A DNA stretch of 64,000 bases, taken from NCBI GenBank assembly GCA_051362555.1, contig CM120647.1, forward strand, positions 7,936,001-8,000,000. Direction: 5' to 3'. Both the position numbers and the translations under genes were made by a program. The DNA is from Lingula anatina. Its lineage: Eukaryota; Animalia; Brachiopoda. Numbering within the stretch: the stretch's first letter is position 1; the number at the start of each line of letters is the position of its first letter. This document shows, one piece after another, positions 19,297-62,212 of this stretch. The notes beneath the pieces are model-generated. The model was not told the origin of the DNA and made no database searches. It saw only the letters and a list, made by a program, of their open reading frames with translations.

Positions 19297-19402
19297 CAGA
19301 AGTCTAGAAGAGGGGATCCATATGACCTGCCTGGGAGTGGGGGTCTGCCGTACACCGACAGTGACATCTCAGATTACGATGACAGTGTAGGAGTTGTGTC
19401 AG
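19297..19402 (+). CDS. RIMS: RIM exon (..DSDISDYDDSVGVVS); NAGNAGNAG acceptor
   Basis: SD.SDYD..GVV motif of RIM; g|gtaagg donor; start could be 19294, 19297 or 19300. Confidence 0.88.
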
Positions 19403-21443
19403 GTAAGGACATGTCACATCTAACACAATTAGTCATGTGACAGTTGACATTCATTCATGACATTTGACAAGTACAGCCATTTGATGTGTGACATCTAGGA
19501 AATCTGTCATTTGATATGATATGATACAATTTTTCATGTGATGGCTCACACAAAGCTGTTAGCATGTGGCATAAGTGTGTCATTTGACATGTGACATCTG
19601 TCACAGTCAGTTGACATACAATACTTGACACTAAGCTTATTAATTAATGCATCTCAGTTTTGCTGACAATTCCAAAATATGAATGTAATACATATTTGTA
19701 CTTATGGGGATTGATGGTCATTTTTGCATCTCTGGTTGGGTTTTACTAATTTAATCTGCTTTTCTTAGGAAGTAGTCTGGGTGCTTGCTCCCAAATTTTG
19801 GTGATGTGTCCTCTCCTCTGTCTTTTAGACAACATTGATATAATTTGGTCAATGTAGTACAGATAAACTCACTGTCTTTTTTTTTTTTTTTTTCATTAAT
19901 AATATTGCGTGAATTAGGTGATGTTCAATGATTTTGAAATGTAAAAATCTCATTAACCTCATTTCCAAGTAAGGGCATAAACAAATAATAAGATATAATA
20001 AAAATAAGGAAAAAGCAAAGACTTCGGAAATGATTTGAAGCCTACAGTACCCTAACTTTATTATCTGACAAATAAAGATCACAATTCTCTGTGCCTGTTC
20101 CAGTTTATTGTGTAGCACCATATTAATAATAACTGAAAGCATGACACCATTGTGATTAGATTGAAAATTCATGTCTTAGAAGGTCAGTATTATGTCCATG
20201 TAAAATGGTCACTTTGTTGAGCCCTTCAGCACCCATATATTTCATTGGTCTAGATATTGTGCTACAATAGTATTGGATGCCAGTGACATGAACAGTTACA
20301 GTAGATGCAGCCTCACTTGTTTACAAGGAAACCAGCATGTTTGTAAAATTATAAATATTATAAATTTCCCGAACTCTGCAGCATGATGAGAGAAAGTCCA
20401 AAATTTTGTGTTATAGAGAAAAATGAGGTGGGAAGAAGAGTAGAAAGGCATCCTTTAATGACCCGCAAAGTTGATTCAGAAGTCGTAATTGTTATGAGAG
20501 AAAAAGTGATACTTTTTGAAAAAATTTTGGGAATGACATTCATTTGTCTATTTGCATTTTTGTCTAAAATATGGCCAATGATAGACTTTTTAATGCTTTT
20601 GCAATGGGCATGAAGAAATTGTGCCTCCCTCACTGAGAATCATCGAATTAGCAATAAAGCCCTCAAAAACTGGTCAGCAATTTTGGATAGGGTGCTCCGA
20701 TTCCATGGTCACTGTGATGTATGAAAACTTTCTGGTCAAGAATTTCTTTGGATTTAGTCATCATAATCTTTTGCTATATAAAGGTGTAGACTGATTTAAA
20801 ACAAAGATGTCTGGTCATATTTAGTTGCAATAAAAATATTGATTTAATGTTCGAAAGATAATTTTTTGAATGTGATGCTGTGTACGTATGTGCATGTGTG
20901 TTAATTTGTTAATATAATTACTTAATGACATAATTGAAATGCAATGTCAAATTATAAGGAATGTACATTGGTCTTCATGATTTTATTCAAAGAATTTTAA
21001 CATTTATTTCAAAGTCTCCTTATGTCTGTCTAAGCTACTTCTGATTATATTTGAGTTAAGATTTTAAAGAGTCCCTCCTTCTGTTTTCTTTGTAAGTCTA
21101 CTAGACTTGTTTTTTTAAATATATTTATATAATCTAGGCATGTTTTTGTATGTGTTCTAGTATGTAATAAATAACACAGTTTGGATAACAATGATTTTTC
21201 ATATCTGTAGCTCTTTCCTCAATCACAATGGATATGATGAAGTAGTTCAAATCTTAAAGACAAAAAAAAAGACTAAGGATGCTGACAGCTTCACTTTTTT
21301 TAACAAATAATATTTTTCAGTCATTTGCCTCATAAACATACAGACACTTAAAGAATATTTACAGTAACGTTCTGAAACCAACATTTCCCCTCTTTGAAAA
21401 TGTTAATTCGGTATCACTTTTTCCATGGTCTAACCCTACATAG

Positions 21444-21578
21444 GCTATAGTGGGCGTGGGGATGGTGCTAGCGTTAGCTCCATGGGTAGCTCCTGTCCGG
21501 GCAGCGAGGAATTTTCAGACATCAGTAGCGAAAGAATGACCCAAAGAGAGCAGGAACGCCTGCCCTCTCCCTTGCCTG
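21444..21578 (+). CDS. RIMS: RIM exon (GYSGRGDGASVSSMGSSCPGSEEFSDISSER...)
   Basis: catag| ... g|gtagga; phase 1 to 1, open frame. Confidence 0.8.
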
Positions 21579-23509
21579 GTAGGATATTATGGGATGTTGA
21601 CTTGATGTTGCCATGGAAACCCCCACTGTGTTGCTGCATGTTTCAGTGCCCCCTATGTATCTGTATTTACATTGGCACTAGTTGTTCATTATACTAACAA
21701 CTATACATTCCATCCTATTAGTTGTTAATTATATATAACTAACATTGCTTCCTCTAATTGTCACACGGCTACGATGAATTCGACTTTGCATTTGTCACCC
21801 TTCAGTGTTAGTGAAATTGCTGCTGCAAATAGTACATGTTTTTAGTGAGGCAGTCTGCATTTGTTGTTGTCATAATTGTCACTCGGCTTGCTTCCCGTCG
21901 CTGTCTGTCCCCATCCTTGTGTTAACATTTACAATGTCAACGCATTGTCACATGCTTAACTTCCATTGCTGCATCTTAAAACTGCTTCCACCAAGTCGCA
22001 AGTTGGGATTTTGTTTTTCTGTCCTTTGTAACTTAAGATACCATATCACCTTAATACAACATATTAATTCCTTTTGAATCCTTTTCTAAACCAATCTGTG
22101 GTAAAAAAAGAAAATGTATAACCTAAACACCACAGTACTTTAGATTTTATTATGTACCACTATTTTCTTTGGATTTCTGTTAATGAAATTATGCTATGAG
22201 ATCAAGGAAATTCTGTCGATAAAATGGTTCCTACAGGTAGATGTATGAAATGTTAAGGATGTCCCATACTGAATTGGTTAATAATTGACAGGTGGGATAT
22301 ATATTTTTTTTTTTTGGGGGGGGGGTCGATGAACATCTGCCAGATTTATTAGCAGTTTAAACTACATTGATTCTTGAGTGGGATTGTTTAATAATTAACA
22401 GATTTATTAATTATTTTTTTGTGGGGGTAGGTATAAGGTAAAAACTATGAAGATATACATGTAGGAAATTAAAGGCAATAATCACTTTACATACCATTAG
22501 AGAAATGTCACTGCTTGGGTAGCTAGGTTGAACATTAGATTGATCATGACTGATGGGTAGAGATGGAAAGAGAAATTCTTGGAAATCAGTTTTAAGAGAC
22601 TTGAGGCATGATGATTTGGTCTTTCTTTACCATTTAATGCAATAGGCAATGAAGAAATTACTTCATTATTATATCTTGATGCTAATAAAAAAATCAGGAG
22701 GTATTTTAATGGGCAATTAAGATCAGGTCTCATACATTGTTACTTCCCTTTTTAATTGTCCTAAATATTGAGGACACTTTATCCACTCTGTTCTGTTCCA
22801 GTAATGAAGAGTTTAATTATGATTCACAATAATGTAAATCTTGAATACCATTCCAGCTTTAATACCATCCAAAAGAAGCGTAATGCATCTTTACTACACA
22901 GCATCTAAACATTTTGCAAAATGCTGTCAAGCATCAATATACAATTAATTTTATTTTATTAATATATCCCAAAACATGAAATGGGATATTTTTGTGGTTC
23001 TTTTAGACCTTATGATGTAGTTTATCTCAGTTATGTTGCTGCTTTTTTTGTACATTAATGCCAGGCTTCAATTTTCACTGAATGTGCAAGAGGAACAATT
23101 TCTCTTTCTGTAATTAATTATTTTACAATTTCTGATAAGTGTTTTATTTTAAATAACAGTGTATCAGTGATATAGGAATAAAAGCATGCTACTATTGCTA
23201 CTGTTTTTATTATTTGCTTTATGTTCACAGCTATTTTGTGGTTTATTTTTGATATACATCCATTCTATTAACCTTACATATCAGCATATGTGGAATATTT
23301 TATATTACTCGGAACTATCTCTTCATTAATTGGCCTTGCACTTACTTAACTTGACTTCATTATATTTTTGAATGTTTTTAATACTTTTACTCAGGTTTTC
23401 AACTTGTTTATTTCAGAATTAAAAAAGTTAACAACATGTAGTTTAAAAACTTGTTTATATTATATGATACATTTTTCATGGACAACTTCTGGTTTCTCTG
23501 TCACTTTAG

Positions 23510-23747
23510 GCCAAGAAGAGCTTCAGCACCGAGGTAGGAAATACTCAGTTGGGGACACGTTAACAGTTCCAGAAAATGCCGCAGGAAGGCACAAGACACG
23601 GGGGACGGGAAATGGAGAGATTGCCTACGACCAGAGACAACAGAGGTCAAGATCACCTGGTCGCCAACGAGTTCCAGACGGAGGCTTGAGGGAGGAGCGT
23701 GAAAGGGGTCGTGACCGAGAGAGGGTGTTGTCACCCTCAGAAATGAG
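23510..23747 (+). CDS. RIMS: RIM exon (..GDTLTVPEN..RSRSP..ERVLSPSEMR)
   Basis: TLTVPE and RSRSP motifs as in RIM; tttag| ... ag|gtgagg. Confidence 0.9.
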
Positions 23748-23861: not shown

Positions 23862-23933
23862 AGCTGCACGGGAAGAGATTGAGCTACAGCGGGAACGTGT
23901 GGCAGCTATCATGTTAGCTGAGGCAGAGCTTAG
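23862..23933 (+). CDS. RIMS: RIM repeat cassette exon 1 (AAREEIELQRERVAAIMLAEAELR), 72 nt
   Basis: tttcag| ... ag|gtgatt; phase 2-2, no stop. Confidence 0.75.
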
Positions 23934-24193
23934 GTGATTTAAGCCGTTGCAGTGTCTCTGTGTGCTGTTTTCTGATGGATGTTCTTTTTCTTTTTTTCAA
24001 GTAAAATCTTTTCAGGCTCATACTTAAGTGCTGTGCATGGTTCATCATGATGATTTTTTTCTTTTGAAAAAAATTCATGTGATATTATATTACATTATAT
24101 TATTTGTAATTTATAAACAAGTTATGCTGAGGATATATAGTATTATTTTTCAAGCATTTGTTGCAAGGTTTCATGTTAAGAAAAATGTTTCAG

Positions 24194-24268
24194 AGCTCAC
24201 CATGCCAACCAAGATGAGAGAAAACTTTTGCAAGAAAGAGAAAATTCCATCTTGCCATCAGAAGTGAG
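24194..24268 (+). CDS. RIMS: RIM repeat cassette exon 2 (AHHANQDERKLLQERENSILPSEVR), 75 nt
   Basis: tttcag| ... ag|gtataa; phase 2-2. Confidence 0.72.
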
Positions 24269-24730
24269 GTATAACAAAGTGACACTTATTTTGCAATGGA
24301 CTGCAATACATGTTGAATTTGACTAGTCTAGTTGTTATTCATCTGAATAAAGTGGTGGCTGTAGAATTTGGAAGTCAGTTCAGACAGGGACAGAATGGAC
24401 TGATTTGGGGGGGGGGGGCACTGAGCATCCAGGTTTATGAATCCGGTATGTTGGTGTCTTTGACACCACAGGGTGTATTCATAAGTATAGTGAGTGACAC
24501 AATTGTATCTCAAACACTAATTTATCCAAGCAGTCAATAGGGTTTTCTCTTGGTGAAAGTTGGTTGGTTTTTGGTCCAAGCAAACCTGTCTGAACACACC
24601 TTTAGAGTGATATTTGCTTCAAGAGGTTTTCAGATTATTAATGAATAAAGTGATTCTGATCAATTATGAGCTTACTTTATGCTAAAGTTGTACTTCAGTC
24701 TGTAGTTAGGGCTATAGTTTTAACTTTCAG

Positions 24731-24793
24731 AGGAATAGTAGCAGAGAGAGGAAAAAATCGAATTCTGGAGGAAATGATATCACCAGAAGTGAG
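24731..24793 (+). CDS. RIMS: RIM repeat cassette exon 3 (GIVAERGKNRILEEMISPEVR), 63 nt
   Basis: tttcag| ... ag|gtgatt; phase 2-2. Confidence 0.75.
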
Positions 24794-25245
24794 GTGATTT
24801 TATTCATTTTTTTGATAATTATTTTTATTATTATTTTTTTTTGTGGTGACTTTGCTAGATTTGTGTGGGGATTGATATTTTATGGAGATGTTTCTTTATA
24901 TTCCAGATTCTATTTGTATTTAATTGGAGATTGAAGATATTATTTTTATTACCCAAAGCAGCTGTCTCAGTACGGTATATACCACCATTCCAACTAGGCA
25001 GCAGTCAAGAGAAATTGACTTTTTTTCAAACAATTTCTCAGTGTTTTATAATATTTATTTGCCAATACATCTTATTTGCAAATGCATTTTGATCACAAGA
25101 GAGTTGGATATTTTTTTTTTCAATCAGCGTTAATAGTAACAAGTGGATCATTATCAAGCTCATTTTACTTCATAAGTAACATACAAATTTAATTTGAAAA
25201 ATCTACTTTTTTTAATAGCTTGTTTTCATATTTTTATGTCCATAG

Positions 25246-25317
25246 AAGAATTCACCACACAGAGAAGGATGTATCATGGGAGAGAGGACATACCATGAAC
25301 ATACTCTCAGAAATGAG
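25246..25317 (+). CDS. RIMS: RIM repeat cassette exon 4 (RIHHTEKDVSWERGHTMNILSEMR), 72 nt
   Basis: ccatag| ... ag|gtgatt; phase 2-2. Confidence 0.72.
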
Positions 25318-25604
25318 GTGATTTCTTTGAGAGACTGCTTCTTTGTTTTATTTATTTTATAGAATTTAACCTATTTATTGTCATTATTATTGTTATTATT
25401 ATTATTATTATAAAAAATAATTGTTATTATTATCATCTAAACCTTCAGACTGCATCATTTATGTTATCTGTTCTTTTAAAGAAATCCTCCATTTTAATTG
25501 CCTCCTGTTGGTAAGAGTTGACTGAAAAATATTTTAACAAGTTACTTTTTATGTAGAAATATTGTAGAAATATTGTTTTAATTCAGTTTGCTTTTTGTAA
25601 CAAG

Positions 25605-25673
25605 GGGTATGGTAGCAGAAAGAGAAGAGAGAACTCTGGAGAGAGAAATGAGGGCCGTTTCTCCAGAAATGAG
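25605..25673 (+). CDS. RIMS: RIM repeat cassette exon 5 (GMVAEREERTLEREMRAVSPEMR), 69 nt
   Basis: acaag| ... ag|gtgatt; clearly paralogous to exon 3. Confidence 0.72.
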
Positions 25674-25884
25674 GTGATTTCTCAACAGATTTTAACCCAT
25701 TTTCCATTTTAGAAACTATCATATTAATTTGATTTTGAAAAGTAATATATCAGTTTGTTTGCATTTTAGTGAGAAATTACTCTATTTGTTTCACATAAAG
25801 GACGTTTTCACATCTTTGTTAGTCAGTTTGTGGTGAGAATTTTTAACCTAGATTCAACTTAGAAAAGTTTTTTCTTACCAATAG

Positions 25885-25962
25885 AGGGAGCCAGTCCCCA
25901 AGACTAAAGAGGGAGAGAAGCCGGGAGTTAGAAAACAATATGAATCTTACTCTCGACTTAAG
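25885..25962 (+). CDS. RIMS: RIM repeat cassette exon 6 (GSQSPRLKRERSRELENNMNLTLDLR), 78 nt
   Basis: caatag| ... ag|gtgatt; phase 2-2. Confidence 0.7.
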
Positions 25963-26326
25963 GTGATTGCAAAATGTTTACTGCAGTGTAATTTTGGTTT
26001 GATCATTATACCTGTAATTTATCTTTATTTTTGATTAGACATTTTGTGTGTTTGTGAGTGCTGCATTGACTGCATGTTTCTTCCAGTTATTATTTTAAAC
26101 AGATGCAGTATGATGAATTAAAAAAGAATTAACAGCTATATTGATTCTCTGTGCCGTGTGTATATATTTTTATAATAATTTTTTTTTTAATATTCATTTT
26201 CAGAGTGTACAATAACATGTTATCTTTTCCACCTTTATAAGAACATTTACCTGCCATTAATTGATTTCTGGCAGTTTAAGCTTAATACCAGTACTTTTAA
26301 AGTTTTAATAAATATTTTGGTTTCAG

Positions 26327-26413
26327 AGGAGTGACAGACAGTAGAGATAGAGAGGAGAGAGAGAGGGGGAGAGAGAGGGAGAGGAACAGGATGAATCAAC
26401 CCACGAACATTAG
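26327..26413 (+). CDS. RIMS: RIM repeat cassette exon 7 (GVTDSRDREERERGRERERNRMNQPTNIR), 87 nt
   Basis: tttcag| ... ag|gtgatg; phase 2-2. Confidence 0.72.
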
Positions 26414-27316
26414 GTGATGGCTCTTCAGTTTCAAACTGCATGAAAGTTTGCGAACTCTTTAAAAGCCAGACCTGCAGGAATGGGGTGTTTAGATTGTGGG
26501 GGGAGGCTTAAATGATCATTTTTTTTTTTTTTTTTCTTTTTTTTACCGTGCGGGAAAAGATCTGCTTTTAATCAAAAACTTGATCTGGTTTCTATTTAAC
26601 ATTTGGGGGTTTTGGTAAAAAGTTTTTTAGAAAAAGAACCCCCACCCCCACCTCTTGCAATTACTGGCTAGAGGCCTGAATTTATTAGTCTTTCTTTCAC
26701 ACATTTCACTGTCCTTTCTCTTTTGTTTTCAGGTACTATTGTTGCCATCCATAATAATATGACAAACGATACTGTCATAGATATTTCCCTTTTCAGAACT
26801 ACATAGAAGTGTTTGAACATTGAATATGTGTGAACTGATCTGGGTGCATTTGTTTTCTTTGCCTGCTTGTAATTTTTGTCCTGTCTATTCAGGTGAATTC
26901 AGAAAATGCCTTTTAATTTCCCTTTCAGGTACTTCTTTTCTTATGGAAATTAAGGAGAAATTAGCTTAACTATTGACGATATTTCCATATGTCTTAAGGG
27001 TATTTTATATATACTATATATGCACTGTAAAAAACTATACAATAGTAATTGGAATCTTTCATTTTCTATTCAAATAAAATGTGACATTTTTCTTTTATAG
27101 ACTTAATATCTATTTTTGCCTTGTGCAATTAACAATTTTTTTTCAAAATAAGGAATATTTTAATTTATTCTTAACGATCTGTGCTAGCTGTACTTTTACA
27201 GTGGCATTCTAACATGGGCATGAAGACCTTCTGCCACAAATGAGATTCAGTTTGTATTTTTATATTTATTTATTTATTTATTGTATTTATTGTATTTAAT
27301 AATCTTATTATTACAG

Positions 27317-27370
27317 AGCTGTGAGAGAAGAGCGAGAGAGAGGCCGTACAGTGTCGCCCCCAGCCATGAG
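27317..27370 (+). CDS. RIMS: RIM repeat exon 8 (AVREERERGRTVSPPAMR), 54 nt
   Basis: ttacag| ... ag|gtaagt (strong donor); paralogous to the end of exon 23510-23747. Confidence 0.8.
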
Positions 27371-27653: not shown

Positions 27654-27787
27654 AGGCAAGGAAGTCTCCACCAGGGTGAGAAGTTTATCCCAAACCCGTG
27701 GGTCCAGCCCCCAAAGTACACCTTCCCCAAAGAAACGACAGCTCCCGCAGATTCCACCACAGGCCCAGGGAGCAGGGAGAGACAGAG
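27654..27787 (+). CDS. RIMS: RIM exon with RIM-BP SH3-binding motif (KKRQLPQIPP)
   Basis: RQLPQxP is the established RIM-BP-binding motif; tatag| ... g|gtatgg. Confidence 0.93.
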
Positions 27788-29600: not shown

Positions 29601-30942
29601 GTATCTCCTCTTTAGTTTGCTTCCAGTGTGTGGTTTTTCTTATGTTGTTTCATAATTTTTTGACACTTGCATGGTATGTTTATGTCACAGTTGAGATGAA
29701 AATCCAAGAAGATTGCCAATTGGCCCTAGTAATGCACCATACTGGATTTTTGCTAAGGCATATTGCCATTTGGTATGCCCTTGATCTTTTTGCCAGAAGC
29801 TATTGTAAAAAAAATTCACAAGTTTTATTTTTGCATACTAGCTTTAATACTCTAAAATATACCGTAATCATGAAAGTAAGATTTTCATGGACAGATGTAA
29901 AAAAGAAAATGTATGTATTTATTGCAACAGTTACATTTCCTGTGTAACCTGCTACAAAGTGAAGAGATCATCTGTCCTGTTATTTTCATTGTGCAGCTTC
30001 TTTTTTCCTGTCATTTTTCATGCACACATTTGCTTCCCTTTTTTAACTACAACAAAAAATATCATTATAACAGTTTTCTCCTCCATCCCTCCCCAGCAAA
30101 AGCCAGTAATGGTTCAAGCATGTGGCAAGAAATAAAGATAGAGTCAAACATTCCATCTTGTGAAGCTTTCAGGCATGCATGAAGAGTTGTATTACAGTTT
30201 CTGTACAGATCCATTTAGAGAGTCTTAAGAGAGAACTAAAGTTATGCAGCATTTTTCATACCAATGTTTCACAAAAATTGTAAATTAAACAGTATTTTTT
30301 GTTTTATTTCAAATTTGTAGGTTCCTTTTGAAAATCTGCATGATTGAAATATTTTTACAAAAGTTTTTTTTTTCTTTTTTTTTATGTGAATATTGTTGCA
30401 ATGTTTTTTGCAGTTTAGTATCTGTACATTTGCTAGCTTTGCTGTCCAGCTTCTGTCTCTTAAGTAGTTCCTCTGAGTAATTCTCATATTTAATTTTGTA
30501 TACTCCCAGTGGTGAAAGCAACCCATTCCAAATACATCTTTTTAGGTCATCACTTTTAAAAGCTCTTGGTCAAGTTTAGGTAATAGGTAATATAAATTAA
30601 GCAAAGTTTAGCAACAAGACTTATTGTGAAACGGCACAGTGTTGTATAGCATGACTTATTTCCAGAAGACAATTTCATTTTTGATACAGTGGAACAACTT
30701 TGTATTCCATGCTAAAAGTAGACTATAGGGTTCTGCAAATGGGAAATTTCATTATTATATCTTAAAGCAAGAGATTTCACCTTTTTTTAATTAGAATAGA
30801 CTAATGGTTAAAAATAAATGCTCTAAGTTAATGAGATTCCACTTAACTAATGTAGTAATAAGAGCCTAATAGTAAATGAAGTAAGGCCCTTTTGACATCA
30901 AGCAGTACAGTTTCCTGTATAATGCCAGTATGAATGGTCCTA

Positions 30943-31129
30943 AGAGCACATTCAGAACAGCGGACTAACAGATCTGTGGATCAAATATGCCAACCCACTA
31001 AAAAGCTTGCCACTTAATTCATGTTTAAATGCTGAATAGATTCCCCTCTGGAATTATGCACCAAGCACTCCAGTAGGTCAGCCATATTTGGTCAGTGGAT
31101 TTGAAAGTCTGCTGTTCTGAATGCGCTCT
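30943..31129. mobile_element. AGAGCGCATTCAGAACAGCGGA-TIR MITE (Harbinger-like)
   Basis: Long TIRs; homologous copy at 45151-45326. Confidence 0.75.
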
Positions 31130-36229: not shown

Positions 36230-36369
36230 CCCCCTATGTGAAAGTGTACTTAATGGAAGGAAAGAATTGTGCTGAAAAGCAGAAGACCATCATTGCCAGG
36301 CGAACGCTGGATCCTCTGTATCAACAACAGATTGTTTTCAATGAGGATTACCATGGGAAAGTAGTTCAG
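36230..36369 (+). CDS. RIMS: RIM C2B exon 2 (APYVKVYL..KTIIARRTLDPLYQQQIVFNEDYHGKVVQ)
   Basis: Diagnostic C2B sequence; first donor at 36370. Confidence 0.96.
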
Positions 36370-36629
36370 GTAGGAGAGGGTACAGATGATTTTGTTTTCA
36401 ATGAGGATTACCATGGGAAAGTAGTTCAGGTAGGAGAGGGTACAGATGATTTTGTTTTCAATGAGGATTACCATGGGAAAGTTGTTCAGGTAGGAGAGGG
36501 TACAGATGATTTTGTTTTCAATGAGGATTACCATGGGAAAGTAGTTCAGGTAGGAGAGGGTACAGATGATTTTGTTTTCAATGAGGGTTACCATGGGAAA
36601 GTAGTTCAGGTAGGAGAGGGTACAGATGA
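36332..36629 (+). repeat. 60-bp tandem repeat x~5 spanning the exon/intron junction
   Basis: Unit ttgttttcaatgaggattaccatgggaaagtagttcag|gtaggagagggtacagatgatt; only two internal substitutions seen. Confidence 0.97.
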
Positions 36630-36659
36630 AGATTTAGGCCCAATTTTTTGTTTTATACT

Positions 36660-48264: not shown

Positions 48265-48520
48265 TTACATCCTTTGTTACTTTCTAATATCTACACTATG
48301 ATATAGACCAGTTTTAAGGTAAAAAAATCAATGAATTGAAAATCAATGAAATCAAATCTGTTACTTCAGTTAATTCTCTGTCAACAAGAAGCCATATGAT
48401 GAATCACTTTTTTTCACTTTAAAATATTTTCCCTTATCTTAATGCATGAGAATTTATAACTAATAGGTTAGATCAGTGCATCTCAAATTACTCAGATATC
48501 ATTTTATGTCTTCCTACACA

Positions 48521-49777
48521 TTATGCATCAGCGTCTGCAAAAACATTTCTAAACATTGCAACAGGGTATATAACAGGTCCTTCTCCTGGAGCAACATCAT
48601 CTTTCAATTCCTTTTTGACTGCAGCTTCAATACAAAAACCGTTTTGTTCCCTTGTCCCTGGATCTGAATCCTCAATTTGAAATTCTGTCTTTAACTGACG
48701 AGAAGAAACATTCTCACTAAAGCCCCTTTGAGAATATTGGCATTTGAGTGATTTTTCTCCATTGTGGGTTCTTTCATGCTGTGTACAGTTGCTTTTGTCA
48801 CTAAAACTCTTTTCACAGTACAGGCACTTGAAAGGTTTTACTCCAGTGTGGGCCCTTTCATGCGACATGTAACTACTTTTTTTTGTAAACCTCTTTTCAC
48901 AATACTGGCATTTGAATGGTTTCTCTCCAGTGTGAGTCCTTTCATGTGTTATACAGTAGCGTCTCTCAATAAACCTCTTTTCACAATACTGGCATTTGAA
49001 TGGTTTTTCTCCAGTGTGGGTTCTTTCATGTGTTATACAGTTGCTTCTCTCAATAAACCTCTTTTCACAATACTGGCATTTGAATGGTTTTTCTCCAGTG
49101 TGGATCTTTTCATGTAATAAACACTTACTTTTTTCAATAAACCTCTTTTCACAATACTGGCATTTGAAGGGTTTTTCCCCAGTGTGGCTCCTTTCATGTC
49201 GTACACATCCAGGTTTGCTTTTAAAACTTTTTTCACAATACTGACATTTGAATGGTTTTTCTCCAGTGTGGGTCCTTTCGTGCCTTGTACATGCAACTTT
49301 CTCACAAAAACTATTTTCACAATACTGGCATTTAAATGGTTTTTCTCCAGTGTGGGTCCTTTCATGATTCATATATTTACTTATCTCACGAAACCTCTTT
49401 TTGCAATACTCACATTTGAAAGGTTTTTCTGCAGTGTGTTCCCATTCATGTCTTGTACGCTGACTTTTTGTACCAAAATTCTTTTCACAATACTGACATT
49501 TGAATGGTTTTTCTCCAGTGTGGGTCCCTTCGTGCTGTATACATGTGCCTTTCTCACCAAAACTCTTTTCACAGTGCTGGCATTTAAAAGGTTTTTCTCC
49601 AGTGTGTGTCCTTTCATGTCTTGTACGTTTACTTTTTGTAATAAAACTCTTTTCACAATACTGACATTTGAATGGTTTCACTCCAGAGTGAGTTCTTTTT
49701 TGTACCGAGGGCCCATGTAGTATACCCGCGCCATTATGTAACTCCAACACGGTTTTCTTAAAATTTGGTATTTCCAT
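48521..49777 (-). CDS. C2H2 zinc-finger protein, copy 1 (11 fingers + conserved tail)
   Basis: Tandem CxxC..HxxxH with TGEKP linkers; ATG of MEIPNF at 49777 (an upstream exon is not excluded). Confidence 0.88.
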   Translation of the reverse strand: MEIPNFKKTVLELHNGAGILHGPSVQKRTHSGVKPFKCQYCEKSFITKSKRTRHERTHTGEKPFKCQHCEKSFGEKGTCIQHEGTHTGEKPFKCQYCEKNFGTKSQRTRHEWEHTAEKPFKCEYCKKRFREISKYMNHERTHTGEKPFKCQYCENSFCEKVACTRHERTHTGEKPFKCQYCEKSFKSKPGCVRHERSHTGEKPFKCQYCEKRFIEKSKCLLHEKIHTGEKPFKCQYCEKRFIERSNCITHERTHTGEKPFKCQYCEKRFIERRYCITHERTHTGEKPFKCQYCEKRFTKKSSYMSHERAHTGVKPFKCLYCEKSFSDKSNCTQHERTHNGEKSLKCQYSQRGFSENVSSRQLKTEFQIEDSDPGTREQNGFCIEAAVKKELKDDVAPGEGPVIYPVAMFRNVFADADA

Positions 49778-51525
49778 GTTTAACTCAGCAGTATCCAGAA
49801 GAAAATTTCTTTTTGGAACATAAGTACACATAGGGCTTCTCTCCAGGTTGAGTCCTTTGGTTTGGTTTAGCCGTTGGTTATATAATATTTACACGTGTGA
49901 ATCACTACACATGGGTGTCCATTCACGGTCGCTGTGTTTGGACTATCCTTGTGGAAGCGAAGTTTAATTAATTTTTTGCAATCAAAAGTTGCAGCCTCGC
50001 CAGCCAAAAAAAATCTTGATGATATACAGCAAAGTTGTATAAGTCTATCCGTCCCCTTTTCGTCGCTTATTATTTTGGCAAACAAGGACAGATTCCAAAG
50101 AAGGAAACTATGCAAGTAAAAAGGGTGTTATACTATTCACCGATGCTATTATCTGACATCATTCGGGACAGGCCAAATTCCAATATATTCACCTGTCCAG
50201 TTCATGTCTTTTACTTCAGTTATTTTTCTATCAACAAGAAGTAATACAATGTTTTTTTCAATTTTCCACTTTCTAATTTATTACCACATTTCTTCATGTT
50301 TGACACGCCACACGTAAAAAGTGACATAATGAGATCAATATGTATCTAGACAGCATTTCATCGATCAGTATAACTGTAATTTTTTTAAACATTGCAACAG
50401 TATATATCTGTGATATCACCTCTGGTGTAAAACTGTTCGACTTTTTGGTGGCAACTGGCTTCAACATGGCGTATATTATATTTCCCCCCCAAAAAGAAAA
50501 AAAAAAAGCAACTTGGTGGTGGGGGGAGGAGAGAGATCGAGAGAGGAGGGGCTAAACTTTTTTTGGGTGGAAATTATTCAATTTTTTCCATGTAGATTAT
50601 ATGATGCATCCAAGATGAATGAATCTGTTTGAATGGTAATAATCCAATGTATTGCAGTGTATTGCGCAATTCAGTCACACCCGCAGAGCTGTCAAATGTA
50701 CAGACAAAAAGCAGAAATTAAATAACAATGCACAAAATAGGCTACTGTCAATTCTGATGCAAAAGTACATTATGCTTAACTGCAAATTCAACATCAAATT
50801 TTAATTATGCTCAACAGGTAATACCGATGTAAGTAAAATGTGTATCAAGCATTGAAAATGCCAGAATGAGAAAAATGAAAATATGATAACCCAATTGAGC
50901 TGGCTTTCTAATTTGAACAGCATGCCCATTCCTCAAAACCATACTAGTAATTTAGTTAAAAACAATAATAACTAACACAGTTTTCTTTTAATAAGATTTG
51001 AAGCAGTGAAAAAATATTTTTGTCAATTTTGATGTAACATTACATAATAAATTACAGAATAATTATCACCAATTTTTATTATTGACTATAAAAAGCATGG
51101 ATATGTGGAAATTTGATTACCATTCGGCTTTATGTCCATGGGAGATCCGAGTCCCACAATGAATATGCCAATACGATAATAATAAATATTTCACTAAAAT
51201 GTATAACTTCCAGAAAAAGAAGCCAATTAGACTGTTTTTCCAAGTCAGGCTCCATTTTAGTCCTGTGTTTCTTTTTTAAAAGTTTGACAATCATAAGTAA
51301 CATGGTTTTCCCATAATAGTCATCATGGCAGCAGCACCCAAAATTGTTTTCTTCTATTTTGATGCAATATTACATAATGCTTAACAGCATAATGACCATC
51401 AATTTTCAAAAATAAAATATACGTATCATGGATTTTCAGAAAATGTGACTAGCATGGGTCTTCAAGCCCGTGGAGGTTCTAAGCCACACCTTGAAAATGC
51501 CAATATGTGAAAAATCAAATTTTCA

Positions 51526-51565
<40 letters not shown>

Positions 51566-52266
51566 TGCCAGAAATACTTACCAAACAGACTGCATTGCCT
51601 ACTGAAGCTGTATTTTAGTCCCATGTTTCTTTTCTGCAAGTTTGAGAACAGTAAGTGACATGGATTTCCTTAAATGGTCATCATGGGAGCAGTGCCCAAA
51701 ATAGGGGTTTCTTCAAATTTTGATGCAACATTACATAATGTTTAACAGCATAACGACCATCAATTTTTTATGATAAAATATTAGTATCATGGACATTCAG
51801 AAAACGTGACTAGCAAAGGTCTTCAGCACCATGGGACTTTAAAGTCACACCTTGAAAATGCCAAAATGTAAACAAGACAGCACTGTTCTGAAATAGGTTT
51901 ATTTACATAGATCAACTAAAAAAATTGATGAGATTTTTTTTAACCTTGCAAAATGTCCCTTATTCTACCTCCTTCATTCAAGATTTAAAAAACAATGTGT
52001 ATTAACGTCCTTCCTTACTTTCTAATGTAAACACTATAACACTATGACCAGTTTTAAGGTAAAAAATCAATGAAATGAAAATGAATGAAATATCATCTAT
52101 TACTTCAGTTAATTCTCTATCAACAAGAAGCTATTTGATAAATCATTAATTTTTCACTTTAAATTATTTACCCACATCTGAATGCATGAGGACTTATAAC
52201 TAATAGGTTAGATCAGTGCATCTCAGATTACTCAGATATCATTTTATGTCTTCCTACACATTAATT

Positions 52267-53464
<1,198 letters not shown>

Positions 53465-55355
53465 TTAAAATATTTTTACGTGAGAATCACTACACAATAC
53501 ATACATGGGTGTCAATTCACGGTCGCAAAAAAAATCTTGATGATATACAGCAGAGTTGCATAAGTCTATCCGTCCCCTTCATGTCGATTAATTATTGTGG
53601 CAAACAAGGACAGACACCAAAAGGGAACTATGCAAGTAAAAAGGATTTATACTATTCACCGATGCTATTTATTTGATATTATTCAGGACAGGCCACATTC
53701 CAATTCACCTGTTCAAATCACATCTTTTATTTCAGATATTTTTTATCAACAAGAAGTAATACAACGATTGGGCCCCTGGTTATTTTTAGTATTTTGGAGA
53801 GAAAACCGTGCCCTTTGTTAAGAACTATGATTTAACTAGTCAAATTTCTAATTTCAAGGGGGGGGGGGGGTACTGGTGCGATCTGTCTTAATCGCAGATA
53901 AATAATGCACCATAATCTTTTATTCAGGCACTGCTCAATTTGTTGAATTATTGGGAATTAAGAGCATAGTGTTCAGATCATCATAGTCGCCTTCCCCTCC
54001 CACAAAATTTACAATTTACGACCTAAGGTTCTAATCCTCTCGCTCATGACTGGACATTTTGGCCGAGGTTTTCTCTCGGAAATGTATATTTTTGTAAGTT
54101 TATTTCTTTAATACTTACAATCATTACAGCATAAGTATACATGTGTTTATATACACACATACTAAAGCATGTGCACCTGTATACATACATGAGCATACCC
54201 ACACATACACACACACTCGTACTTAACTGTAAAGCTATTTGTTGCAGTTTATAGTGGTCAAGAACTGTACTGATATTTTAATAAGTATATAAAAGGTAAC
54301 AGTGATAATTCACTTACTTTATAATATTGTTATTAACATAGTAGCTTGCAGAAGTTTATATACATAACATGTGTAAAGGCAGATTATTTAGAATAAAATA
54401 TTTGTAGAAGAAACAATTACGCTGTTTATACCAGGTAAGTGTTTCTTCTAAGCACTCAAGACTGTTTCAGTTTTATCTATCAAAAGAATGTTTTAGTGTG
54501 GTACATATTCATACTCCATCACGTGATTGGTTGTTGAGATGATAGAACTGTATGTGAGTACATACTCGTATATTAAACTGTCAGATTTGACTACAAGGTG
54601 GATGCATATATTCATAACAATGATTGAGTAAGCATATATTAATACATTGCTGAGGTTCATGTCCAGCACCACATGTACCAGATATCTATAAATAAACCTT
54701 CTCTCGGAAATGTAGTTATGTCATAATGACCACTCTCATCTTAATATTCATGTAATCATTCAAGTTTTGTAATCAACTTTCTGTTATTGCACCAAAATGG
54801 ACAAAATAACCTGCTTTGTTCAATTTTATTTTCTGCTTTATTTGTAAGGAAATTTGACAGTTTTGCAGCGTTTTTTATAAGTTTACCTTTATTGTTGCGT
54901 TTTGGCTAAAAAAAGCAAAAAAAAAAAAAAAAAAAAAAAAATCCTAGTGCTAACCCTGACATGATGGATCATTAACCTGAGATAAATGAAGTGTTTTCCC
55001 TTTAAAGTCTTAAAGACTGTGAAGCATGATTTTTTTCAACCTCGCAAAATGTCCCTTATTCTACCTCCTTCATTCAAGATTTAAAGAACAATGTGCATTA
55101 AGGTCCTTCCTTACTTTCTAATGTATACACTATGATATAGATCAGTTTTTAGGTTTAAAAAATAAATGACTTGAAAATGAAAGAAATCTCATCTGATACT
55201 TCAGTTAATTCTCTATCAACAAGAAGCCAAGTGACGAATCACTTTTTTTTCACATTAAATTTTTTACCCATATCTTAATGCATGAGAACCTAAACTAATA
55301 AGTTAGATCAGTGCATCTCAAATGTCTCAGACATCATTTTATGTCTTCCTAGACA

Positions 55356-56954
55356 TTATGCATCAGCGTCTGCAAAAACATTTCTAAACATTGCAACAGG
55401 GTATATAACAGGTCCTTCTCCTGGAGCAACATCATCTTTCAACTCCTTTTTGATTGTGGCTTCAAAACAAAAAACCCTTTGTTCTCTTGTCGCTGTATCT
55501 GAATCCTCACCTTCAAATTCCTTCTTGGACTGAAGAGAAGAAACATTCTCACTAAAGCCCTTTTCAAAATATTGCCATTTGAGTGATTTTTCTCCAGTGT
55601 GGCTTCTTTCGTGCCGTGTACAGTTACTTTTCACATTAAAACTCTTTTCACAATACTGGCACTTAAAAGGTTTTACTCCAGTGTGGATCCTTTCATGCTG
55701 TGTACAGTTGGTTTTCTCCTTAAAACTCTTTTCACAATACTGGCATTTGAATGGCTCTTCCATAGTATGGGTCCTTTCATGCGACATGCAAGTACTTTTT
55801 TTCGTAAAACTCTTTTCACAATACTGGCATTTGAATGGTCTTTCTCCAGTGTGAGTCCTTTCATGTATTTTACAGTAGCGTCTCCCAATAAACTTCCTTT
55901 CACAATACTGGCATTTGAATGGTTTTTCTCCAGTGTGAGTCCTTTCATGTGTTATACAGTGGCGTCTCTCAATAAACCTCTTTTCACAATACTGACATTT
56001 GAATGGTTTTTCTCCAGTGTGGATCCTTTCATGTAATAAACACTTATTTTTTTCAATAAACCTTTTTTCACAATACTGGCATTTGAAGGGTTTTTCCCCA
56101 GTGTGGGTCTTTTCATGTTGTACACATCCGGGTTTGTTTTTAAAACTTTTTTCACAATACTGACATTTGAATAGTTTCTCTATAGTGTGTTCCCATTCAT
56201 GTCTTGTACATTGACTTTCTGTATCAAAATTCTTTTCACAATACTGACATTTGAATAGTTTCTCTGCAGTGTGTTCCCATTCATGTCTCCTACACTGACT
56301 TTCTGTATCAAAACTCTTTTCACAATACTGACATTTGAATGGTTTTTCTCTAGAGTGGGTCCCTTCATGCTGTATACAGTTGCCTTTCTCGCCAAAACTC
56401 TTTTCACAGTGCTGGCATTTAAAAGGTTTTTCTCCAGTGTGTGTCCTTTCATGTCTTGTGCGTTTACTTTTTGTAATAAAACTCTTTATACAATACTGAC
56501 ATTTGAATGGTTTTTCTCCAGTGTGGGTCCTTTCATGGTCCATATATTTATTTATCTCACTAAACCTCTTTTCACAATACTGGCATTTGAAAGGTGTCTC
56601 TGCAGTGTGATCCCATTCATGTCTTGTACAGATACTTTTTGTACCAAAACTCTTTTCACAGTACTGACATTTAAATGGTTTTACTCCAGTGTGGGTCCCT
56701 TCGTGCTGTTTACATGTGTCTTTCGCACCAAAACTTTTTTCACAGTGCTGGCATTTGAAAGGTTTTTCTCCAGTGTGTGTCCTTTCATGTCTTGTGCGTT
56801 TACTTTTTGCAGTAAAACTCTTTTCACAATACTGACATTTGAATGGTTTCACTTTAGTGTGAGTTCTTTCGTGTACCGGGGGTCCATGTACATGTAGTAT
56901 ACCTGCGCCATTTTGTAACTCCAACACGGTTTTCTTAAAATTTGGTATTTCCAT
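55356..56954 (-). CDS. C2H2 zinc-finger protein, copy 3 (15 fingers)
   Basis: Intact ORF with the same N- and C-termini as copy 1. Confidence 0.9.
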   Translation of the reverse strand: MEIPNFKKTVLELQNGAGILHVHGPPVHERTHTKVKPFKCQYCEKSFTAKSKRTRHERTHTGEKPFKCQHCEKSFGAKDTCKQHEGTHTGVKPFKCQYCEKSFGTKSICTRHEWDHTAETPFKCQYCEKRFSEINKYMDHERTHTGEKPFKCQYCIKSFITKSKRTRHERTHTGEKPFKCQHCEKSFGEKGNCIQHEGTHSREKPFKCQYCEKSFDTESQCRRHEWEHTAEKLFKCQYCEKNFDTESQCTRHEWEHTIEKLFKCQYCEKSFKNKPGCVQHEKTHTGEKPFKCQYCEKRFIEKNKCLLHERIHTGEKPFKCQYCEKRFIERRHCITHERTHTGEKPFKCQYCERKFIGRRYCKIHERTHTGERPFKCQYCEKSFTKKSTCMSHERTHTMEEPFKCQYCEKSFKEKTNCTQHERIHTGVKPFKCQYCEKSFNVKSNCTRHERSHTGEKSLKWQYFEKGFSENVSSLQSKKEFEGEDSDTATREQRVFCFEATIKKELKDDVAPGEGPVIYPVAMFRNVFADADA

Positions 56955-57835
56955 GTTTACCACAGCAGTATCTCGAAGAGAATTTCTTTTTAGAACACTA
57001 GTATACAGATGGCTTCTCTCCAGTTTTAGTCCTTTGGTTTGATTTAGCCGTTGGGTTATAAGTTAAAATATTCATGGGTGTCAATTCACGGTCGCTGTGC
57101 TTTGGATCATCCTTGTGGAGGCCAGGTTAAGTTAATTTTTTTGCAATCAAATGTTGCAGCCTCGCCAGCCAAAAAGTCTTGATGATATACAGCAGAGTTG
57201 CATAAGTCTATCCGTCCTCTTTTCGTCGCTTATGTGGCAAACAAGGGCAGACTCCAAAGAAAGAAATTATGCAGGCAAAAAGGGTATTATACTATTCACC
57301 GATGTTATTTATCTGGCATTATTCGAGACAGGCCACGTTCCAATTCACCTGCCCAGTTCACGCCTTTTACTTTAGTTATTTTTCTATCAACAAGAAGAAA
57401 TACAATGATTGATTCAATTTTCCACTTTCTAATTTATTACCACATTGCTTCATGTTTGACACGCCACATGTAAAAAGTGACATATTGAGATCAATGTATC
57501 TTATATATCCTAGACATTTCATTGATCAGTAAAACTGCAATTTTTTTAAACATTGCAACAGGATATATCTGTGATATTACCTCTGGCGTAAAACTGTATG
57601 ACTTTTAGGTGGCAACTGGCTTCAAAACATGGCATATATGTCCCCCCAAAAAGATAAACAAGGCAGCAAAGCTGTCAAATGTACAGACAAAAAGCAGGAA
57701 ATAACTATGCACAAAATAGGCTACTGTCAATTCTGATGCAAAAGTACATTATGTTAAACTGCAAATTCAACATCAAATTTTAATTATGCTCAACAGGTAA
57801 TACCAATGTAAGAAAAATGTGTAACAAGCATAAGG

Positions 57836-58520
57836 CTTCAGGCCCATGGGAGTTCAAGTTCACACTTTGAAAATGTATAACTTCCAGAAAAAGAAGCCAA
57901 TTAGACTGCTTTTCCAACTCAGGCTGCATTTTAGTCCTGTATTTCTTTTCTGAACGTTTGGCAATCATCAGTAACATGGTTTTCCCATAATGGTCATCAT
58001 GGCAGCAGCACCCAAAATTGTGTTTTCTTCTATTCTGATGCAATATTACATAGTGGTTAACAGCATAATGACCGTCAGTTTTTAATAATAAAATATACGT
58101 ATCATGGATTTTCAGAAAATGTGACTAGCATGGGTCTTCAAGCCCATGGAACTTCAAAGTCACACCTTGAAAATGCCAATATGTAAAAATTAAATTTTCA
58201 CAAAAAAAAAACTGTTTAACTAGCAGAAAGAATTACCAAACAGACTGCATTGCCTACTGAAGCTGTATTTTAGTCCCATGTTTCTTTCCTGTAAGTTTGA
58301 GAACAGTAAGTGACATGATTTTTCTTAAATGGTCATCATGGGAGCAGTGCCCAAAATATTTTTTTCCAAATTTTGATGCAATATTACATAACGTTTAACA
58401 GCATAATGACCATCAATTTTTAATAATAAAATATTAGTATTATGGATATTCAGAAAATGTGACTAGCAAAGGTCTTCAGGCCCATGGAACTTCAAAGTCA
58501 CAACTTGAAAATGCCAAAAT
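57836..58520. repeat. ~300-340-bp degenerate tandem subunits (also at ~51130-51870)
   Basis: cttca(g/a)gcccatgg..ttcaa..tcaca..ttgaaaatg recurs at ~57836, 58136, 58474. Confidence 0.75.
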
Positions 58521-59328
58521 GTAAACAAGACAGCACTGTTCTGAAATGTTTTTTTTTTCCATTTTTAACACTTTTTTTAACATAAAACAAAATTAACAGT
58601 TTACTGCCATTTTTATATGATCAACTAAGAAAATTGATGAGATGTGAAAAATATCAATAGAACAGTGTCAAATGTCCAATTTCCTCCATTCTGAGTTTCT
58701 GAACATAGTGAATGATTGAATCTTACAAACTGCAATGATATGAGTTTATTTCCATTTTTGACACCTTATTACACAATACAGGATTACAAGTTTACCATCA
58801 TTTTTACGTAATCAACTAACAATGTTGTAAAGATGCAGGAAATGTCAAACAAACACTTTTACATATCTTATTAATTAAATAATGAGACTGTTAACATGCC
58901 TAAGAATTGAATCTGAGGAAATGTGAAACAAGACAGCACTATTCTGAAATGGGTTTATTTCCATTTTTAACACTTTTTTAACATAAAACAAAATTAACAG
59001 TTTACTGCCATTTTTATATGATCAACTAAGAAAATTGATGAGATGTGAAAAATATCAATAGAACAGTGTCAAATGTCCAATTTCCTCCATTCTGAGTTTC
59101 TGAACATAGTGAATGATTGAATCTTACAAACTGTAATGATATGTGTTTATTTCCATTTTTGACACTTTATTACACAATACACGATAACAAGTTTACCATC
59201 ATTTTTACAAAATCAACTAACAATGTTGTAAAGATGCAGGAAATGTCAAACAAAAACTTTTACGTATCTTATTAGTTTAATAATGAGACTGTTAACATGC
59301 CTAAGAACTGAATCTGAGGAAATGTGAA
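58521..59328. repeat. ~403-bp tandem duplication
   Basis: aaacaagacagcact...ctgaggaaatgtgaaa occurs twice with high identity. Confidence 0.88.
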
Positions 59329-59616
59329 AAATATGCTGAAAAGTGAAAAAACAGCATAACTTCTACAATAATGGCCCGATCATGCTGATTTTCGAACTTG
59401 ACCTGCGTTTTATGAATATTCATCAGCTCTGTAAATATAAAGCCAAAAAATAAAACTGCCCTCCACTTATCGTGTTTACAAGGAAAGTGCACGGCGCCGG
59501 CATCGCCATCGCCATCGGCATCGCCATCGCCATCGGCGACGGCGACGACAGACGCAGGTGATGGCAATATGTACAGACACATCTGTGTCTGTACATAAAA
59601 AAAGCAACTTGGGGGG

Positions 59617-59656
<40 letters not shown>

Positions 59657-60644
59657 AGGGGCCAAACTTTTTTTTTGGTGGAAATGATCCCATATTTCCT
59701 TGTAGATTATATGATGTATCCAAGCTGAACGAATCCTTTCAATCAGAAAAATTATGAATTTTACAGGTATTGTATTAAGTCATTTTTTAAAGTTATAACA
59801 TTCCTCTTTAATGATATCAACAAAACCACTAAACAGCGACTACATGTTGTACCTTACAGTTCTGTTATATAAGGAAAAAGCACTACAGATGCTATAAATA
59901 GATATATCTTTTGATGATTTTTAAAACTTTTCTCCTTCTATGGCATGTGAAATACTATTAGTCTTTCCTCATTGAAAAGATTGATTCCTTAACATATATT
60001 TTTTGTAGCAGTAATTACTGGCAAAATTTTATACATGCGCAAATGTTGCATATGACGAGAAGGTACATTTAATCCAAAACACTCCAAAACCCAATAAAGC
60101 CTTTGAAACTGGGAATTTGTCTTAATCCCAGATAAATAATGCACCATAATCTTTTGTACAGGCACTGCTCAATTCGTTGAATTATTGGGAAATAAAAGCA
60201 GTGTTCAGAGCATCCCTCCCACAAAATTTACAATTTAAGACCCAAGGTTCTAATCCTATCGCTCATGCCTGGGCCGAGGTTTTCTCTCGGAAATGTAGTT
60301 ATGACCATTCTCATCCTTTTGTCTTAATATTCATATAATCATTCAAGTCTTGTAATCAATTTTCTGTTATTGTAATATTCCGTTATTAACGTCCTTCCTT
60401 ATTTTCTAATGTATACACTATGACATAGATCAGTTTTTAGGTTTAAAAAATAGATGACTTGAAAATGAAAGAAATCTCATCTGATACTTCAGTTAATTCT
60501 CTATCAACAAGAAGCCAAGCGATGAATCACTGTTTTTTCACATTAAATTCTTTACCCATATCTTAATGTATGAGAACTTACAACTAATAAGTTAGATCAG
60601 TGCATCTCAAATGTCTCAGATATCAATTTATGTCTTCCTAGACA

Positions 60645-61190
60645 TTATGCATCAGCATCTGCAAAAACATTTCTAAACATTGCAACAGGGTATATAACAG
60701 GTCCTTCTCCTGGAGCAACATCATCTCTCACTTCCTTTTTGACTTCTGCTTCATTACGAAGTGTGTGGTTCCATTCATGAAGTACACATCCATGTCTGCT
60801 TTTAAAGCTCTTTTCACAATACTGGCATTTGTATGGCCTTTCTCCAGTGTGTGTCCGTTCATGTCTTGTACATAAACTTTTTGTAATAAAACTTTTTTCA
60901 CAATACTGACATTTGAATGGTTTTTCTCCAGTGTGGATCCTTTCGTGGTCTCTACATGCGCTTTTCTCGAGAAATCTCTTTTCACAATGCAGGCATTTAT
61001 GTGGTTTTTCTCCAGTGTGTGTCTTTTCATGATATGTACGTTTACCTTTCGTAATAAAACTCTTTTCACAATACTGACATTTGAATGGTTTCACTCCAGA
61101 GTGAGTTCTTTCTTGTACCGAGGTTTCATGTAGTATACCCGCGCCATTTTGTAACTCCAAATCGGTTTTCTTAAAATTTGGCATTTCCAT
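60645..61190 (-). CDS. C2H2 zinc-finger protein, copy 4 (4 fingers)
   Basis: Intact ORF with conserved termini. Confidence 0.85.
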   Translation of the reverse strand: MEMPNFKKTDLELQNGAGILHETSVQERTHSGVKPFKCQYCEKSFITKGKRTYHEKTHTGEKPHKCLHCEKRFLEKSACRDHERIHTGEKPFKCQYCEKSFITKSLCTRHERTHTGERPYKCQYCEKSFKSRHGCVLHEWNHTLRNEAEVKKEVRDDVAPGEGPVIYPVAMFRNVFADADA

Positions 61191-61760
61191 GTTTAATCCA
61201 GCAATATCAAGCAGAATTTTCTTCTTAGAACATCAGTTCATGAGTGGCTTCTCTCTCTAGGTTGAGTATTTTCGTTTGGTTTAACCACTGATTATTTAAG
61301 TTATAATATCTGTACGTGTAAATCACTATACATATACGGGAGTGTCAATTCACGGTCGCTGTGCTTTGGATAATCCTTGTGGAGGCGAAGTTAAATTAAT
61401 TTTTTGCAATCAAATCTTGCACCCTCACCAGCCACAAAATGCTTGATGATATACAGCAGAGTTGGATAAGTCTATCCGTCCACTTATCCTCCTCTCACCG
61501 TCGCTTATTCTGGCAAACAGACAAAGAAATGCAAGAAGAAGAAAGGTGTTATACTATCCACCGATGCTATTGATCTGACATTATTCGGGACGGGCCACAT
61601 TACAATTCGCCTGTCTTTTATTTCAGTTATTTTTCAATCAACAAGAAGTAATACAATGCTTGATTCAATTTTCCACTTTAAATTATTACCTCAATTTTTA
61701 TGTTTGACATGCCACAAGAAACAAGCGATATAATGAAATCAGTGTATCTTATATATCCTA

Positions 61761-61983
61761 GACCCCATTCCCATAGATTTTAGATAAATTTATCCCTGTT
61801 GGGAGTCTCACAAGATTACTGTCAGCTTAGCCGGCTGAAGCATCTGTCCTGCTACTAAAAGCTGTAAAGGGGTAATTAAGTATGGTGCACGCTTGGCTGA
61901 CTGCAATTAACATGAACCCCCAGGGAATTAGGTCGATCTAAATCTAAATCTCTGGATCGATAATAAGTTCTGGGAATGCACCC
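61761..61983. mobile_element. PIF/Harbinger-like MITE
   Basis: Reverse-oriented homolog of the 44494 copy; TSD cta; empty paralogous site at ~57510. Confidence 0.85.
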
Positions 61984-62046
61984 CTAGACATCATTTCATC
62001 AGCAACTGCAATTTTTTTTTCCGCATTGCAACTGCCAAGGATATAT

Positions 62047-62212
62047 CAAGGGGCGGATTGAGGCTGTCTTCTGGGTCTCCTGGAAGATGATCAGATTGTC
62101 AAGTTAACATTGATGGGTGTCCAATTTTCACAGTTGGAAAATGGTCAAAAGTGGAAGAAGGATCAACAAAGGTAACTTGGAAGACTGTCAGAAAATATCT
62201 CTGGATATCCTC
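62047..62212 (-). mobile_element. CAGGGG-TIR MITE, copy 5 (degenerate)
   Basis: Homologous to 37891-38058. Confidence 0.75.

Follow-up and report, generated by a model that had tools for sequence, protein, structure and literature searches.

A tandem array of duplicated, variably skipped exons in the linker region of a RIM gene of the brachiopod Lingula anatina

The window analysed, a 64,000-nucleotide stretch of the Lingula anatina genome (contig CM120647.1), contains a RIM gene of the RIM1/2-alpha type (RIM-I), in which PDZ, C2A, a proline-rich motif and C2B occur in the RIM order (Pfam matches, single exons) and with which the RIM proteins of Haliotis and Owenia are colinear over positions 7104-37658 (tblastn). 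Ortholog residues before 624, among them the N-terminal zinc finger, have no tblastn match within the 64-kb window, and this part of the gene probably sits upstream of it. Between C2A and C2B, an exon with RNA joints on both sides (E0, 23510..23747, plus strand), the tail of which probably gave rise to the repeat unit described below, is followed by eight short exons (A1-A8) and then by an exon (E9, 27654..27787, plus strand; recognized by its translation, its conservation in orthologs and its RNA joints) that encodes the proline-rich sequence RQLPQIP, by homology a putative RIM-BP SH3 site. On the minus strand at about 48400-63400, the window also has candidate C2H2 zinc-finger genes, suggested by the plus-strand translation of several tandem stretches.

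A search with the E0 peptide returned one protein cluster at 100% identity, consisting of XP_013421618.1 and XP_013421619.1 (L. anatina RIMS2-like isoforms X1 and X2), and no protein of a form skipping A1-A7. Both proteins contain A1-A8 all in frame, letter for letter, and differ from each other only outside the array, downstream, from residue 399 on. The array, called hidden in a sequence-only reading of this DNA, is indeed absent in its correct frame from the open reading frame track, but the RefSeq models hold all eight exons. Thus, the array exons are already annotated; skipping is absent from both RefSeq proteins, and the splicing is the new part. Both RefSeq proteins begin at an internal methionine in the exon at 21444 and lack PDZ and C2A, whereas RNA joins the upstream PDZ/C2A exons to what follows (19402 to 21444 and 19402 to 23510), and the RefSeq gene model is therefore truncated or split. 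A literature search, which did not extend to subscription papers and supplements, found no description of the array; it goes unmentioned in the portions available of PMC9282427 and PMC7456537, and those of PMC8569591, PMC5462952, PMC7273530 and PMC5346360 hold nothing further on this region of RIM.

The exon at 21444 is a separate upstream cassette of 135 nt (21444..21578, plus strand), with an included form in RNA run X4, where the two joints have 9 and 11 reads, and joints for a skipped form in runs X7 and X9 (3 and 4 reads). Because the matching segment is likewise present or absent among isoforms of abalone, limpet, snail, octopus and oyster, this exon is probably an old conserved cassette.

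All eight array exons lie on the plus strand: A1 (23862..23933, 72 nt, the most diverged), A2 (24194..24268, 75 nt), A3 (24731..24793, 63 nt), A4 (25246..25317, 72 nt), A5 (25605..25673, 69 nt), A6 (25885..25962, 78 nt), A7 (26327..26413, 87 nt, rich in GA repeats) and A8 (27317..27370, 54 nt). Every one of them (8/8) has AG before it and GT after it, a length divisible by three, phase 2-2 and no stop in the phase-2 frame, and the introns following A1 onward measure 211-903 nt. The donor is GTGATT in A1 and A3-A6, GTGATG in A7, the weak GTATAA in A2 and the consensus GTAAGT in A8. The proposal that eight purine-rich islands are exons was therefore correct in lengths, acceptors, phase, open frames and donors alike. 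The array is not a product of chance, because six of the nine plus-strand AG/GTGAT(T/G) sites of the window lie within it (the minus strand has one such site), because a length divisible by three and an open frame in the same phase occur together in only 103 of 1473 random intron pieces (AG..GT, 50-95 nt), and because a leave-one-out matrix built on the exon end and its donor, applied to about 128,000 positions, ranks E0, A3, A4, A5 and A8 first (A2 11th, A7 20th, A6 86th, A1 557th). The same scan found no intact copy beyond these nine (E0 and A1-A8), the next scores being unrelated donors, and the introns of the array are not enriched in TGCATG, YCAY or ACTAAY.

The intron between A7 and A8 has three strong polypyrimidine-AG/GT sites (26732, 26892 and 26928) resembling recursive splice sites or zero-length exons, for which no RNA support was seen. 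It also holds an exon-like remnant (27202-27244) with an acceptor-like start, a unit-like 3' end, a donor changed from GT to AT and an in-frame stop; possibly a dead ninth copy, it falls outside the top 22 of the matrix.

Of the 36 pairs in an all-versus-all comparison, 8 are similar at p<0.01 as protein and 7 as DNA, and the flanking introns show no similarity (best p 0.025 among 36 pairs and 0.04 among 28 pairs); since whole-exon similarity is weak and the flanking introns share nothing, the copies are old. The start of A8 repeats eight consecutive residues of the E0 tail with six of the eight codons silently different. This identity, together with the exon-end matrix, supports the suggestion that the array was built by serial copying of the end of exon 23510-23747. 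In the peptide pattern proposed earlier, which runs from arginine to arginine, the terminal arginines are the junction codon (AG/A or AG/G) and do not count as independent evidence. An assembly artefact or a recent tandem repeat is ruled out by the diverged copies, the unrelated introns and the RNA joints. Elsewhere in the gene, at about 36330-36630, there are some five near-identical 57-nt tandem copies of the 3' end of a C2B exon with its donor, which could have arisen recently by tail duplication of the same kind or could be an artefact of assembly.

E0 ends in the motif R-S-L-S-P-P-E/D-x-R, which other invertebrate RIMs have once or not at all. Of 172 invertebrate RIM proteins examined, 18 lack the RQLP anchor; among the 154 that have it, 131 contain the core of this motif, (R/G)(S/T)(L/M/V)SP, a single time and 23 do not contain it, although many of these entries are isoforms from shared genes. 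From the end of the motif to RQLP there are 27 residues in Haliotis, in Gigantopelta, in a scorpion and, counted from A8, in Lingula, which marks this as the ancestral distance. From RVP(E/D) to RQLP, 112 outgroup proteins have 22-46 residues, whereas Lingula has 72 without A1-A7 and 244 with them. A hidden Markov model of the array unit matched 2 of 381 fetched proteins, both from Lingula, for which the model is circular (as is the broad motif expression, tuned on Lingula); the array was found in none of the 379 others. Isoform fragments or other brachiopods were found in none of 7982 candidates among shorter proteins, protein searches identified no second brachiopod or phoronid RIM, and the ESM Atlas gave no usable match. 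As far as sampled, comparison of sequences suggests that the array is lineage-restricted.

The single core in 131 of the 154 anchored proteins, and the position of the motif at the end of each copy, might indicate that the copies multiply S-P-P-E/D-x-R as a phosphorylation or docking site, such that inclusion would tune valency and not length; SRPK2 phosphorylates RIM1 (PMC10952393, in a passage that does not give the site). This explanation is improbable: the terminal S-P is kept in two of the seven optional exons (A3 and A5) and lost in A1, A2, A4, A6 and A7, and the array has no PxxP.

Splicing was evaluated in seven of the nine RNA runs under the species label (X2 and X3 were left out), at 6-30% of each run, tissues not being given; X1 has no coverage of the array exons, and the evidence comes from the other six. 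A joint was listed only with at least three reads and at least two starts, and read counts may include overlapping mates (the A8-E9 joint in X6 has 20 reads but 10 starts). At 30940-31020, in each of the four runs of one mapping, a short dispersed repeat drew numerous RNA reads that match it in part.

The joint from E0 directly to A8, with A1-A7 all skipped, has 36 reads in six runs (X4 17, X6 7, X8 4, X7 3, X9 3, X5 2), the joint from E0 to A4 has 8 (X9 4, X4 2, X7 2), and that from A1 to A8 has 3 (X6). Skipping of all seven is thus the commonest form, accounting for 36 of the 44 reads that leave E0 among the joints listed, whereas the two RefSeq proteins include all eight exons. Seven loose read ends before A8 in X6 fit a joint from A7: their consensus (agreement among reads 0.91) has a 15-base core that maps 15/15 to the 3' end of A7 and matches A7 at 28 of 30 positions by eye. 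A7 itself has zero depth in X6, probably because repeats were skipped in mapping. A2, A3, A5 and A6 appear in none of the joints listed at the threshold of three reads and two starts, and each is covered at depth 1-5 in at least one run (A5 at 1-2 in X8 and X9; A6 at 1-3 in X6, X8 and X9, partly intronic in X8). Run X4 has zero depth over A1-A3 despite its 17 reads from E0 to A8, whereas X6, from the same study, has depths of about 8, 5 and 3 over A1, A2 and A3, and in about 10 of its 17 entries into A8 the preceding exon is an optional one. A1-A7 are optional and variably skipped, to different extents in different runs.

These reads bear out the in-frame use and variable inclusion that had been proposed. 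Junction reads across the array are present, and neither of the two outcomes named beforehand as contrary to the proposal, a lack of such reads or all eight exons always together, was found; the 36 skipping reads rule out a constitutive repeat region. A8, joined to E9 by 38 reads, looks constitutive in the examined runs: it takes part in every listed join into E9, and a direct joint from E0 to E9 is absent among those listed at three reads and two starts. Eight optional exons are thereby ruled out for these runs, and the ceiling originally envisaged, 2^8 isoforms with 0-190 extra residues, falls to 2^7 = 128 forms with 0-172. The term combinatorial cassette is borne out for variable inclusion but is unsupported for free combination, as no listed joint connects two of A1-A7 and each involves at most one of them.

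The joints from E0 to A4, A1 to A8, A7 to A8 and E0 to A8 would all fit a cluster of the mutually exclusive kind, with none or one of A1-A7 in each mRNA and eight isoforms in total. Tandem homologous exons of similar size, such as A1-A7, are the usual substrate of mutually exclusive splicing. We nevertheless regard such an arrangement as very improbable. The RefSeq models chain all eight exons; X9 has no listed joint from A4 to A8 despite its 4 reads from E0 to A4; and the letter counts of X9 in the bins across A5 and A6 (expected and seen alike 17, 66 and 14) fit one 150-nt read, 149 letters of it, running from A5 into A6. In addition, with introns of the lengths given above and every exon a multiple of three, neither steric clash nor frame bars co-inclusion. 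From the RefSeq chain and this depth arithmetic, we infer that several of A1-A7 can be included together.

In coding exons, the reads of X7-X9 match the window at about 90-97%, with mostly silent changes, and they may come from a divergent population or from a different species that carries the Lingula label. Although X7-X9 differ from the window by about 5%, A4-A6 and A8 are in use there too; among the differences listed for them, three of three in A8 are silent and the one in A4 is non-silent.

The 172 residues of A1-A7 (R32, K4, E31, D5) have a net charge of 0, 42% charged residues and no PxxP; neutrality exon by exon is not significant (p=0.06). AlphaFold2, run with a 23-row alignment that has no depth over the array, predicts a helix of 46 residues in A1-A2 (residues 108-153, pLDDT 73-84) and gives A3-A8 a pLDDT under 50; the lack of alignment depth makes this result weak. 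The insert is thus predicted to be mostly disordered except for the helix of A1-A2, in which case the modules of the array would not be equivalent. Arginine codons of A1-A7 are biased to AGR (20:5 versus 23:24, p=0.012), and four-fold sites lean toward purines (p=0.06). Purine-rich splicing enhancers, or GA repeats, would give such a codon bias, so the charge may be partly a by-product of purine-rich exon sequence.

That bias is in keeping with a nearly neutral origin, by which symmetric copies would have accumulated in a tolerant disordered linker at low or leaky inclusion while copies that broke the frame were purged, purine richness reflecting splicing enhancers and GA repeats. The predominance of complete skipping (36 of the 44 listed reads leaving E0), the retention of the terminal S-P in just two of seven optional exons, the donor-less remnant at 27202-27244 and the unrelated repeat expansions in the same linker of Mya, venerid clams, hemichordates and starfish all agree with it. 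We consider it unlikely all the same: A1-A7 are all open although their flanking introns have no remaining similarity, optional exons account for about 10 of the 17 entries into A8 in X6, and A4-A6 remain in use in RNA that differs from the window by about 5%.

The reading that we prefer, at slightly better than even odds (a probability of roughly 0.55), is that A1-A7 act as a splicing-set, sample-dependent length dial on a charged linker between C2A and the RIM-BP motif. A duplicate of the E0 tail, donor included, would have gained an acceptor and then been copied serially, the symmetric 2-2 phase allowing any copy to survive. The copies would have inherited weak donors of the GTGATT type, making skipping the default, and A8 would have acquired or kept a consensus donor, fixing one copy. 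Matches to U1 number 8/9 in the A8 donor, 5-6/9 in those of A1-A7, 6/9 in those of E0 and E9 and 5-6/9 in other used donors; since these used donors score no better than the optional exons, the strength of the donor is not enough to predict skipping, and the consensus donor of A8 is a correlate of its fixed inclusion, not a full explanation.

Under the length-dial reading, several optional exons could be included together, and up to 172 neutral Arg/Glu residues would lengthen the stretch from C2A to PxxP (RVPD to RQLP, from 72 to 244 residues). The longer linker is predicted to raise the partitioning of RIM into RIM/RIM-BP condensates and to add no binding sites. RIM-BP binds PxxP between the RIM C2 domains, according to the available part of PMC10169678. 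Passages of PMC13294362 report for rat RIM1 that condensate enrichment increases with fragment length, but also that a PRM2+IDR2 fragment alone does not condense and that the region after C2A is dispensable for droplets. Condensation of Arg mixed-charge repeats depends on their length, as an excerpt of 10.1101/771592 states.

We also entertain, as a tentative and rather doubtful possibility, the broader idea that a combinatorial cassette arose twice at one and the same point of RIM, independently in brachiopods and in vertebrates, the one in Lingula, made by serial copying of one exon tail, being a cell-type-regulated Arg/Glu length dial of up to 128 isoforms that sets the properties of active-zone condensates. 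If this were true, synaptic release would have a general tuning site in the linker from C2A to PxxP, with a clean, homogeneous test series at hand. To our knowledge, the role of the alternatively spliced linker of RIM is poorly resolved. Common RIM rescue constructs leave out the linker exons, judging from part of 10.1101/2023.10.27.564439. An independent cassette of like units at the same site suggests that linker length or charge, not specific motifs, is the variable, and the Lingula array offers a graded natural series of linker lengths.

In vertebrate RIM1 and RIM2, the region between C2A and PxxP is reportedly alternatively spliced (the 'splice site B' ascribed to Wang and Sudhof in 2003). 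As in Lingula, the variable exons of vertebrate RIM lie between an RSRSP segment and the RQLP exon. Rat RIM1 has alternatively spliced stretches at H1084-R1169 and A1207-T1378 (excerpt of 10.1101/2023.10.27.564439), and 60 RIM2 proteins of fish and shark (58 parsed) yielded 30 distinct linkers of 95-220 residues made of interchangeable modules. The fish modules, however, are mutually unrelated (0 of 6 pairs significant) and less charged, whereas the Lingula units are serial copies of one. Lingula units and fish modules reach p<0.01 in 1 of 45 comparisons and show no sign of homology, and convergence of the two cassettes is likely, as the simplest reading of the sequences. Mollusc, annelid, nemertean, chelicerate and hemichordate isoforms vary by only 4-25 residues between the motif region and RQLP. 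Independent expansions occur in the same linker, of RSRSP type in Mya and venerid clams, as three repeats in hemichordates and as Arg-Asp repeats in starfish.

The encoded insert partly resembles the Arg-enriched mixed-charge domains described in the accessible part of 10.1101/771592, in its great excess of Arg over Lys, its acidic balance and its predicted disorder outside the A1-A2 helix, but it differs in being 42% charged, in using Glu and not Asp, in belonging to a cytoplasmic scaffold and in having its length set by splicing. With mutually exclusive clusters of the Dscam1 type, the array shares tandem homologous exons of equal phase and similar size. In Lingula, however, the commonest form includes none of the seven optional exons, with 36 reads that skip A1-A7 where such a cluster places one exon in every mRNA; its units encode a charged peptide, predicted to be mostly disordered, in place of domain variants, and co-inclusion appears to be allowed. 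It is an RNA-supported tandem exon array that is cumulative and not mutually exclusive, with one fixed copy, known from one non-model genus and few reads, and it combines two known things, tandem exon duplication and splicing of the RIM linker.
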